The notes under the pieces were generated by a model that was not told where the DNA came from, did not search any database, and was given only the letters and a program-made list of their open reading frames with translations. Source: Escherichia phage vB_EcoM_Schickermooser. From it: a stretch of DNA of 64,000 nucleotides. The stretch is from sequence record NC_048196.1. One strand, written 5' to 3'. Positions 58,335-64,000 of the stretch are shown piece by piece; the first letter of the stretch is position 1, and every line of letters starts with the position of its first letter. The translations under genes were made by a program, and so were the position numbers.

Positions 58335-60359
58335 ATGAATTTAACAAGACCTAATAGTGCGATAGCCGATCTGGTAGAAGCTACTTATCGAAAACGTCGC
58401 AGCTTTGAGGCAGGTTTTACATTACGTAATTCCCGTGAAGTTTTGCTGTTAGCAGCAGAAGGGAATTATTACCAATGGAAAGGAACTTTTCCTAAAGTGG
58501 TTCCAGCAAACTCTACGCCAGCCACCACAGGTGGTATTTCTTCCCTTGCATGGCAAAGTGTTGGGACCGCTGATGATATAGCAATTATCAATGCCAAGTT
58601 TACGGCAATGCAGCAACAAATTGATGATCTGTCGGAAACAATACCTGAAGCTGGTAAATCGGCTTATCAGATCGCACTTGATAATGGTTTTGTTGGAACA
58701 GAAGCACAGTGGCTTGCCTCTTTGAAAGGGGATACTGGTGCTCAACTTAATATTAAAGGATCATTAGCAAGTACTAGTGAACTACCATCCACAGGTAACG
58801 TTGCAGGGGATGGTTATATCGTAGGTGATGTAATCTACGCTTGGGATGGTTCTGTTTGGAAACTTATTTCTTCTCTTGGGCCAGAAGGTAAATCAGCTTA
58901 CGAGGTATGGTTGGCAGATGGTAATACAGGATCTGTTTATGATTTCCTTACCTCTATAAAAGGTGATAAAGGCGATGTTGGTCCTACAGGGCCACAGGGA
59001 GCACCTGGTGTTAACGCCAACGGTTTTGATTATCGTGGAGATTTGCCTTCTACAAGTAACTTACCACAACCTAACTCTGAAAACGTAAGCCAAGCTTATT
59101 CTATCAATGGAAATCTTTATGTCTCTAATGGGACAGCTTGGGTCAACATGGGTAATATTGTTGGTCCTCAAGGTCCACAAGGTGAGGCAGGTAAAGACGG
59201 TCTAGATGGAACAGATGGAGATGAAGGGAAATCTGCATATCAAAGTTGGCTGGATGCTGGTAATGAAGGGACAGAAGTAGATTTTATTGCCTCGCTTAAA
59301 GGTCCAAAAGGAGACAAGGGTGATCAAGGAGAGCAAGGTCCACAAGGTGAATTAGGTCCACAAGGACCAGTAGGTGCAACAGGATCAGGCTTAGAGATTA
59401 TCGGGGTTCTGAACAGCGAAGCTGAACTTCCTCCGACTGGAGAAGTAGGTGACGCATATAAAATTAATAATGATTTATATGTTTGGGTCCAAGATGCTAC
59501 GGAATGGATGAATGTTGGCAGTCTTGGAGGAACATCAATTACAGCTAAAGGTCATGTTCCGAACAGTGAAGCTCTCCCTGTTTACAATAACTATGGTGAT
59601 GCTTACTTAACTGAAGACACTAGTAATCTTTACATCTATACCTACGATCAAGACACCAATTCCGCATCTTTTGTTGACATGGGAAGTATTAAAGGCGACA
59701 AAGGTGAAAAAGGGGATAAAGGAGATAAGGGTGATCCTGGAACAAACGGAACCAACGGTACTGATGGGACCAACGGTAAGGATGGCGCACAGTGGTTTGT
59801 AGCAACAACTAATCCAGTCACAGGAGACGGTGTTATCAATGATTACGCCTTCAATACTACCACTGGAGCAGTATTTAAGAAAACAGATTCTTCTACGTGG
59901 ACACTTATAGGAACTCTTCCTAGTATACCAGAAGCCCCTCAAGACGGCTTGACGTATGGTCGTTCTGATGGAAACTGGATCGAACTATCAGGATCAGATC
60001 CTACGGAAGCTATAACACCAACTAGAGTTACAGCAGGTTTCATGGAACTTGAAACAACTACTGCCAACTCTGGAGCATCTTGGACTCCTTCTGGAACTTC
60101 CAATATGTATGTTGTTACAGTAACTGACGCTCTGACAGTTGGAGCATGGCCTGGTGTCACTGGCTCTACAAAACCTAAAGCGTTTTCAGCAATGATTTAT
60201 TTGATTCAAGATACAACGGGACACACGGTTACACTAGATGCGTCTTATGGAGCACTAAATGATACAGAAATAGCAACTACTGCTAACGCAGTAACAATTT
60301 TGCAATTAACGTATCCTGGTGTGGGTGATATCGTGGACATGGTTGTTGTAACACGATAA
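58335..60359 (+). CDS. tail fibre with collagen-like Gly-X-Y repeats (674 aa)
   Basis: GPQGPQGEAGKDGLDGTDGDEG, KGDKGEKGDKGDKGDPGTNGTNGTDG and three copies of GKSAY...KGDKGD module. Confidence 0.55.
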   Translation: MNLTRPNSAIADLVEATYRKRRSFEAGFTLRNSREVLLLAAEGNYYQWKGTFPKVVPANSTPATTGGISSLAWQSVGTADDIAIINAKFTAMQQQIDDLSETIPEAGKSAYQIALDNGFVGTEAQWLASLKGDTGAQLNIKGSLASTSELPSTGNVAGDGYIVGDVIYAWDGSVWKLISSLGPEGKSAYEVWLADGNTGSVYDFLTSIKGDKGDVGPTGPQGAPGVNANGFDYRGDLPSTSNLPQPNSENVSQAYSINGNLYVSNGTAWVNMGNIVGPQGPQGEAGKDGLDGTDGDEGKSAYQSWLDAGNEGTEVDFIASLKGPKGDKGDQGEQGPQGELGPQGPVGATGSGLEIIGVLNSEAELPPTGEVGDAYKINNDLYVWVQDATEWMNVGSLGGTSITAKGHVPNSEALPVYNNYGDAYLTEDTSNLYIYTYDQDTNSASFVDMGSIKGDKGEKGDKGDKGDPGTNGTNGTDGTNGKDGAQWFVATTNPVTGDGVINDYAFNTTTGAVFKKTDSSTWTLIGTLPSIPEAPQDGLTYGRSDGNWIELSGSDPTEAITPTRVTAGFMELETTTANSGASWTPSGTSNMYVVTVTDALTVGAWPGVTGSTKPKAFSAMIYLIQDTTGHTVTLDASYGALNDTEIATTANAVTILQLTYPGVGDIVDMVVVTR

Positions 60360-63076: not shown

Positions 63077-63083
63077 TAAAAAA

Positions 63084-63112
63084 GGGAACCCGCAAAGGTT
63101 CCCTTTTCTTTT
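63084..63112. terminator. bidirectional terminator between convergent genes
   Basis: GGGAACCCGCAAAGGTTCCC flanked by A-run upstream and T-run downstream. Confidence 0.6.
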
Positions 63113-63139
63113 ATAAAAACTCTTTATAAATCAATAAGA

Positions 63140-64000
63140 TCAGAATGGAATATCATCGTCGAAGTCCATTGGAGGTTCTTCTTGATTACTTGGAGTTGGT
63201 TCTGGTTGTGGTTCAGGTTTCTTAACTTCTTTCTTCTCTTCTTTCTTAGGCTGTTCTGCGGAACCACGAATGGCAGCAGCAACTTTATCAGACAGAGCCA
63301 GAACTTTACGAGCAGAATCAATCAGATCTTCTACAGAGACAGTCTTGATGGTATGGTCTTTACAAGCATTGAGAATAGCGTGACCAACAGATGCCCCAAG
63401 ATCATAATCATTAATATCAACGCCACGAGATTCAGCAATTTCAGATTTCAGCGTGACAGTTGCAGATTGAACAACCCCAGCGATATCGAAAGCATCGCCT
63501 TTAACACCATTACGAATCAGTTCCAGTGCACCATTTACTGCGTGACCAGTTTCCAGACCTACAGTATCACGTTTTTTATAGGACTGCTTAGGAGCAGCAT
63601 CGTTGGAACCTTTATTGCCAGAAGATTTGTTAGACTTCTGAACACCATCGGTAGACAATACTGTAATACGAGATTTTTTAGTATTGTAGTAAGTTTTACC
63701 GCCTTTATTATCAACGCGATCAATATCAATACTTACTTCTACACCTTTTTCAATAGTGATCCAATTATCACCTTCTTTGACTTGCAGGTTTTCATAACCT
63801 TCTTTCAGTTCAATGTCACCAAGAGAAATCCAAACACCTTTCTCATCTGGTTTAGCACCTTTCTCTTTCAGAACAAGAGAAGCTCGGTGAGTTGAAACAA
63901 TCGTTTTTCCTTCCCAATGGAAGGTTTTAGGTTCAGCGAATTTATCCAGTTTAACGTAGTCTACGATACCAGTTGCATAAGTTACGGTTTTGCCTTTACG
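63140..64000 (-). CDS. ssb: single-stranded DNA-binding protein, partial (5' end beyond window)
   Basis: C-terminus ...EEPPMDFDDDIPF; frame stays open upstream of track start (TTG at 63658) to window edge. Confidence 0.5.
   Translation of the reverse strand, partial: RKGKTVTYATGIVDYVKLDKFAEPKTFHWEGKTIVSTHRASLVLKEKGAKPDEKGVWISLGDIELKEGYENLQVKEGDNWITIEKGVEVSIDIDRVDNKGGKTYYNTKKSRITVLSTDGVQKSNKSSGNKGSNDAAPKQSYKKRDTVGLETGHAVNGALELIRNGVKGDAFDIAGVVQSATVTLKSEIAESRGVDINDYDLGASVGHAILNACKDHTIKTVSVEDLIDSARKVLALSDKVAAAIRGSAEQPKKEEKKEVKKPEPQPEPTPSNQEEPPMDFDDDIPF

Follow-up and report, generated by a model that had tools for sequence, protein, structure and literature searches.

Does the SSB-like protein encoded at one edge of this phage DNA, which carries the C-terminal tip of E. 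coli SSB on a body unlike that of the host protein, use this tip to engage the host proteins that dock on host SSB? The window that we analyzed, i.e., the whole stretch of 64,000 nucleotides, belongs to a phAPEC8-like myovirus (Phapecoctavirus, Stephanstirmvirinae). We examined the tip and its origin, the body of the protein and the family to which it belongs, and a homolog that has been linked genetically to an anti-phage defence system.

The gene and its host-like tip

Translation of the window gives one open frame for this protein on the (-) strand, ending ...AEQPKKEEKKEVKKPEPQPEPTPSNQEEPPMDFDDDIPF before a TGA stop codon (Table 1). The C-terminal end of the SSB-like ORF in this translation reads ...TPSNQEEPPMDFDDDIPF, followed by the stop, and the C-terminus of the protein is ...PSNQEEPPMDFDDDIPF. 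The ORF is truncated by the edge of the window, with residues 1-9 (MSVINTETD) lying outside. The full-length CDS is 295 aa in PNJ1809-36, a phage that is 99.9% identical, and on the strength of this CDS in near-identical phages only these nine residues are missing from the window.

The preliminary description had read the end of the protein as PPMDFDDDIPF, which the (-) strand translation confirms, and had given the same residues as the end of E. coli SSB. This statement proved correct when checked against full-length SSB in PDB 1EQQ/4MZ9 and against the MG1655 ssb gene (b4059). Our E. coli SSB reference matched PDB 1EQQ/4MZ9 at 178/178 residues, the MG1655 ssb gene was read directly, and both end ...APSNEPPMDFDDDIPF. 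The C-terminus of E. coli SSB, ...PSNEPPMDFDDDIPF, and that of the phage protein are identical over the last 12 residues (EPPMDFDDDIPF, 12/12), and PSN is also common to both, across a 2-residue insertion. The position given earlier for the tip, 63140-63172, is right in its location but carries a trivial 3-nt offset, in that it takes in the stop codon (63140-63142) and omits the codon for the first Pro (63173-63175). The eleven codons of PPMDFDDDIPF lie at 63143-63175, with that for Phe295 at 63143-63145. A second tip-like C-terminal motif was not found when the window was read in all six frames, and family-wide the linker that precedes the tip varies while the tip itself is conserved; the tip is not a product of chance.

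An identity of this length raises the question of whether the tail was captured recently from host ssb by horizontal transfer, or is a chimera of assembly or annotation, in either case with no conserved role. Such an origin would fit the fact that the identity reaches past the minimal DDDIPF into EPPM, with PSN shared too. However, synonymous sites have largely diverged: the 13 shared codons agree at 32 of 39 nt, with all seven differences synonymous and in the third position (7/11 of the degenerate tip codons differ synonymously between phage and host ssb), and codon usage is phage-like, with a GC3 of 0.25 in the phage gene vs 0.58 in host ssb. This synonymous divergence and the gap in GC3 indicate that the identity is kept at the peptide level and not by recent transfer. 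The same gene and tail are also present in dozens of independently sequenced phages, and essentially every member of the family has the tip. The synonymous divergence rules out a recent capture from host ssb, which is effectively refuted, and we give next to no credence to a captured or chimeric tail of either kind.

The SSB-like gene is convergent with a tail-protein gene on the (+) strand, the two meeting over a hairpin that is a likely terminator, and is the first gene of a leftward replication arm. This arm encodes a nucleotidyltransferase, a Pol A-type polymerase with exonuclease, a methyltransferase and a primase/helicase and, farther along, contains a second helicase gene and ribonucleotide reductase genes. 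Our search for a second SSB covered the 50-kb replication arm of a near-identical genome, where this gene is the sole SSB annotated. In a metagenomic relative (L003), the SSB-like gene adjoins a different 846-aa protein, and this change of neighbor marks a mosaic junction.

Table 1. Coordinates of the SSB-like gene, its parts and its surroundings in the window, and of related sites in other phages
Feature	Location	Strand	Basis or remark
Tail-fibre protein, 674 aa, collagen-like G-x-x repeats	58335-60359	+	
Tail protein, 891 aa	60401-63076	+	
GC-rich hairpin, likely bidirectional terminator	63080-63107	.	11-bp stem then T-run; A-run ahead for the opposite strand
SSB-like gene, residues 10-295 and stop codon	63140-64000	-	Translation; PHROG 4477 match
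Tip EPPMDFDDDIPF, residues 284-295	63143-63178	-	Equals the last 12 residues of E. coli SSB; hhalign
Disordered Lys/Glu/Pro-rich linker, residues 254-283	63179-63268	-	pLDDT <55 from 255 on; family alignment
Four-helix domain, residues 154-253	63269-63568	-	AF2 helices with pLDDT >90; conserved columns
Inter-domain disordered linker, residues 126-153	63569-63652	-	pLDDT ~43 for 133-149
N-terminal OB-like beta-barrel, residues 10-125 in the window; presumed ssDNA-binding domain	63653-64000	-	
Cap sites in relatives	L003:4881-4933; L058 (phage nieznany, MN850598), 1778-1830 region; L008-L056 (IMG/VR)		
bas51_0090	L005:3736-4314		
bas58_0089	L006:2036-2614		

The protein body and its family

That the body of the protein looks unlike host SSB was also part of the preliminary description, and this holds, since alignment with E. 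coli SSB by phmmer, hhalign and Pfam gives nothing beyond the tail. In Pfam, the protein has no match at E values up to 1 except spurious low-complexity ones, and the PF00436 OB profile is not matched. The NCBIfam model of the E. coli-type SSB (PRK09010) gives 22.8 bits, its cut-off being 260, over residues 254-295 only. Searches of all PDB sequences by phmmer, and by hmmsearch with the family profile, returned tail matches only, including SSB-tip fusion constructs on myosin and DnaG, and hhalign of the family profile with E. coli SSB aligned only the tip stretch. Among the PHROGs, the protein belongs to phrog_4477 (“unknown function”; E 3.5e-94), the SSB phrogs being matched by the tail only. 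A BFVD search returned uncharacterized relatives only, and no sequence or fold match to T7 gp2.5 or T4 gp32 was found.

The predicted structure comes from an AlphaFold2 (AF2) run, with a 73-sequence alignment, on a relative that is 99% identical and carries a 15-aa extension (P0001). In this model an all-beta OB-like domain at residues 4-125 (1-125 for the barrel; pLDDT 82-90) is followed by disorder at residues 133-149 (pLDDT about 43), by helices at 156-172, 179-201, 208-223 and 232-253 (pLDDT >90), and by a disordered tail from residue 255 onwards (pLDDT <55). The architecture would run from an OB-like barrel through a short linker into a four-helix domain, and from there through a disordered Lys/Glu/Pro linker to an acidic tip. 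The structural neighbors of the barrel are ssDNA-binding OB folds only. No structural neighbor was found for the four-helix domain, which contains an internal Gly-His-Ala repeat (D-x-x-G-x-ETGHAVNGA and GASVGHAILNA) with nearly invariant Gly, His and Asp, and which is probably an oligomerization or partner-binding domain.

One trait of bacterial SSBs is present, namely a disordered linker and then an acidic tip ending D-D-D-I-P-F. The protein resembles E. coli SSB (b4059; PDB 1EQQ/4MZ9; PF00436) in its last 12 residues and in the general plan of an OB domain followed by a disordered linker and an acidic tip, but its body is dissimilar in sequence, it has the extra four-helix domain, and its linker is Lys/Glu/Pro-rich where that of E. 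coli SSB is Gly/Gln/Pro-rich. Host SSB tetramerizes through its OB domains, whereas the phage protein is known here as a single-chain prediction. It is also like T7 gp2.5 and T4 gp32, which are phage SSBs of non-bacterial type with acidic C-terminal tails. In both of these proteins the acidic tail contacts other proteins and is a competitor of ssDNA for the OB cleft. A third likeness is to the SSB of HK620 (ending NDYPPF) and to the PF00436 SSBs of temperate phages and plasmids, which are phage-borne with an SSB-Ct-like tail that partner recruitment requires (Sak4; PMC5928155, where the work on the T7 tail is also cited). However, these are true PF00436 homologs of host SSB, whereas the present protein shares the tip only. 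Many temperate-phage SSBs end MDFDDDIPF.

A word-indexed search identified 137 relatives, 120 of them listed, of 275-425 aa and down to ~30% identity. The family alignment shows conservation of G20, K41, K84, G95 and Y114 in the OB domain, so that the OB fold holds nearly invariant Lys and Tyr residues, and conservation of at least 90% for D154, G157, G161, H162, A163, T190, K194, G211, G215 and A217 in the helical domain. The invariant residues P294 and F295 lie in the tip, in which conservation of D290 and D292 also reaches at least 90%, and the C-terminal linker varies in sequence and length, with no conservation across the family. The window's protein has both the helical motifs (D-x-x-G-x-E-T-G-H-A ... 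G-A-S-V-G-H/N-A) and the terminal ...[ILV]PF that define membership of this family. All 120 of the 120 listed relatives have the tip and keep ...PF; among them 70 have DDDIPF and 27 the full PPMDFDDDIPF. A profile search over 1.84 billion representatives gave 323 clusters worldwide (E up to 1e-3), and a tip-like tail is present in 116 of 138 further representatives from this search, of which 98 end [ILVMFC]PF, 6 have the tip with an extension or cap, and 12 have an acidic tail with PW or DF. These tail counts place the tip as ancestral to the family and, as judged from sequence, it stays on the general bacterial consensus of the SSB C-terminal peptide (SSB-Ct). The tip is under purifying selection across the family. 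Some distant members (within the set P0141, P0142, P0167, P0170, P0190 and P0209) end ...IPFN or ...IPFS, one residue past the Phe, and others ...LPW or ...LDF.

By tblastn, the gene is present in 318 phage records, essentially all of Enterobacterales phages, including Stephanstirmvirinae, Vequintavirinae, Cronobacter CR8/CR9-like phages, Pectobacterium phages and others, where it is mostly annotated “hypothetical protein” and in a few cases “SSB”. The hosts of all cultured members are Enterobacterales, which share one SSB tip, and in the Enterobacterales-phage subgroup 11-12 residues of the tip agree with the host's. Records labeled ‘Campylobacter phage’ (MG0656xx) and ‘Acinetobacter phage vB_AbaM_ABPW7’ (OP562383.1) contain a gene that is 98.6-100% identical to that of E. 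coli phages, and these host labels look doubtful. The long forms of the protein (370-425 aa; rV5-like phages and others) contain an insert of ~60 aa between the OB and helical domains, at the place of the inter-domain linker (residues 126-153), which is predicted to be a second small beta-barrel (AF2, P0079 residues 180-240; alignment columns ~225-290). The phAPEC8-type protein has one OB-type barrel, lacks this insert, and is a short-form variant of the PHROG 4477 family.

Candidate roles for the tip

We think it moderately probable that this protein is a phage SSB with a host-type tip that engages host SSB-interacting proteins on phage ssDNA. The phage-specific PHROG 4477 protein, unrelated in sequence to bacterial SSB, would coat phage ssDNA, and its tip would be a functional copy of the host SSB-Ct. 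From the coated ssDNA, the tip could dock in host SSB-Ct pockets, e.g., those of ExoI/SbcB, Pol III chi, PriA, RecQ, RecO, RNase HI, Ung and DnaG, and this docking would bring host partners to phage DNA and consequently draw them off host SSB. SbcB/ExoI is an SSB-Ct-binding exonuclease, and a free SSB-Ct peptide of exactly this sequence is a standard ligand of ExoI, chi, PriA, RecQ, RecO, DnaG and others. Here we infer ssDNA binding, oligomerization via the helical domain, accessibility of the tip and the identity of the host partners. The proposal starts from a tip that is identical to the host's and is under selection, and from a body that is dissimilar in sequence. It also draws on the folds predicted for the protein, on its genomic context and on its homology to the Vequintavirus protein Bas52_0087. 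The tip identity is real, and through it the phage can probably engage host proteins of replication and repair.

Bas52 is phage RudolfGeigy (MZ501102.1, Vequintavirus), and bas52_0087 is QXV84166.1. The window's protein matches Bas52_0087 by BLASTP in the OB domain (E 8e-13, 35% identity) and in the helical domain and tail (E 9e-16, 33% identity), and Bas48_0087, the ortholog of Bas52_0087, matches PHROG 4477 at E 1.1e-173, so that the family relationship spans both domains. The two proteins also share a location next to replication genes and the acidic tip FDDDIPF. They differ in length (408 aa in Bas52_0087 vs 295 aa in the phAPEC8-type protein), in the second beta-barrel that Bas52_0087 has between its OB and helical domains, and in the tip, since ...YSFDDDIPF of Bas52_0087 shares 7 residues with the host and the phAPEC8-type tip shares 12. 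A preprint dated 30 April 2026 (bioRxiv 10.64898/2026.04.29.721553) identifies Bas52_0087 as the genetically required trigger of the DRT10/UG17 reverse-transcriptase defence, and describes it as SSB-like with the E. coli SSB C-tip motif, FDDDIPF. The SSB-like nature and host-like tip of this family are thus already noted there for a homolog, and no paper in our literature search mentions the phAPEC8 protein itself. The same preprint (bioRxiv 10.64898/2026.04.29.721553) reports that DRT10 toxicity is suppressed by SbcB/ExoI, hypothesizes that Bas52_0087 possibly competes with SbcB/ExoI, and finds that Bas52 escapers from DRT10 (UG17) carry D252V or Y351C in Bas52_0087, and that Bas52_0087 expressed alone is neither toxic nor enough to trigger DRT10. 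Stephanstirmvirinae are also restricted by DRT10, with the trigger there not mapped (bioRxiv 10.64898/2026.04.29.721553). The results on the trigger concern Bas52_0087, from a different phage subfamily, and not the phAPEC8-type protein.

In our alignment, D252 of Bas52_0087 corresponds to the nearly invariant D154 and Y351 to A250, in the last helix, i.e., the escape mutations fall in the helical domain and not in the tip. Since the homolog alone is non-toxic and insufficient and the escape mutations lie outside the tip, the tip does not evidently titrate host partners on a gross scale. The competition for host SSB partners that the preliminary description had proposed is partly supported.

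The gene is encoded right beside the phage's own polymerase, primase/helicase and second helicase, and these own replication proteins count against a host-partner role, in that the tip might really be read by the polymerase and primase-helicase, as happens in T7. The tip would then serve mainly the phage replisome, as in T7 gp2.5 and T4 gp32, tethering the Pol A-type polymerase and the primase-helicase to SSB-coated ssDNA; in a further part of the same explanation it would fold back on the OB cleft as an autoinhibitor, and its likeness to the host would reflect shared ancestry or chemistry. That the HK620 SSB tail is needed for a phage-encoded partner, Sak4 (PMC5928155), and that the homolog expressed alone is not toxic to E. 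coli, are both consistent with this. However, a tail that has phage partners as its only readers can drift (those of T7 and T4 are not host-like, and that of HK620 is NDYPPF), whereas 258 family representatives stay on the bacterial consensus, with the Enterobacterales-phage subgroup sharing 11-12 residues with the host. The long retention of a bacterial consensus in a diverse phage family suggests that conserved host pockets, and not fast-evolving phage proteins, impose the constraint. We consider a role mainly in the phage replisome rather unlikely, and such a role and the engagement of host partners are not mutually exclusive.

A body with no sequence similarity to any characterized SSB, an additional conserved helical domain, and the genetic link to an ExoI-controlled defence system could also be read to mean that the protein is a decoy or regulator, in which the host SSB-Ct sits on a scaffold that does not bind DNA and sequesters host nucleases and helicases as an anti-repair or anti-defence measure, with another protein coating the ssDNA. 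We consider this improbable, given the predicted OB fold with its nearly invariant Lys and Tyr, the position of the gene within a replication module where no other SSB is annotated, and the universal presence of the family in these large lytic phages (318 phage records). A further observation speaks against the preferred reading, a phage SSB that engages host partners, since in 17 of the 120 listed relatives (~14%), including the viable cultured phage nieznany, the tip Phe is buried under an extension of 14-17 aa.

If read in this preferred way, the large and essentially unannotated PHROG 4477 consists of SSB-type proteins that keep the bacterial docking peptide on a non-bacterial scaffold, which aids the annotation of ~300 therapeutic-type phages of E. 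coli, Klebsiella and Salmonella and ties the DRT10 trigger that was recently identified in rV5-like phages to the phAPEC8/phi92 group. With a peptide that is the host's and a body that is different, these proteins are a clean natural setting in which to ask if phage SSBs recruit host partners or titrate them. The concept is already in the literature, and the finding is useful rather than surprising.

Extensions beyond the tip and neighboring endonuclease genes

The extension found in the 17 of 120 listed relatives is a conserved peptide (e.g., APIGLQYGRNFLHCF), or cap, with the consensus AP[IV]GLQY-x3-[LI]-x-x-[MILF] (APIGLQY...; 14-16 aa) after ...DDDIPF; the window's own allele is uncapped. 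In phage nieznany and in a metagenomic contig (L003:4881-5399), comparison with window positions 63110-63145 shows one clean replacement with flanks that are otherwise identical. A cassette of ~510 nt, which contains the cap and an overlapping gene for a 164-aa HNH endonuclease (PHROG 2340), takes the place of the ~30 nt that separate the Phe codon from the terminator. This looks like homing-endonuclease mobility with the tip-coding end of the gene as the junction.

A search of IMG/VR with a degenerate DNA pattern for D-x-P-F-[AS]-[PS]-x-G-L-Q-Y identified 49 loci, mostly on contigs of 40-55 kb. The SSBs that bear the same cap behind DDDIPF in these loci include canonical PF00436 proteins and at least four unrelated Pfam-orphan bodies, and an HNH gene is usually missing downstream. 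Third-codon positions in the cap motif are saturated, which indicates that the cap peptide itself is under selection. We had considered the cap a mere by-product of HNH insertion (in P0001), and this is partly right only, because many capped phage SSBs have no downstream HNH gene. The cap motif was not found in the literature that we searched.

SSB-Ct pockets bind the free alpha-carboxylate, and burying the tip Phe should abolish canonical docking; the cap should remove this free alpha-carboxylate from the tip. A bolder proposal, which we advance as a speculation with the odds clearly against it, is that the tip is a portable, switchable module whose highly conserved coding sequence is the junction for a mobile cap cassette, sometimes with an HNH gene, which in sister phages such as nieznany takes the place of the stop codon of this very gene, and that the cap makes the SSB-Ct internal, gating the access of host partners or hiding the tip from DRT10-like defence. 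If true, the cap could gate host SSB-interacting proteins or conceal the tip from defences that monitor ExoI and ssDNA metabolism.

A different endonuclease gene is present at the corresponding site in two Vequintavirus genomes, Bas51 and Bas58, where a putative homing endonuclease (PHROG 1035, endonuclease VII-like) is encoded 8 nt downstream of the orthologous gene (bas51_0090 and bas58_0089), and this gene is absent at the site in Bas48 and Bas52. Endonuclease genes seem to have landed repeatedly at the 3′ end of the SSB-like gene.
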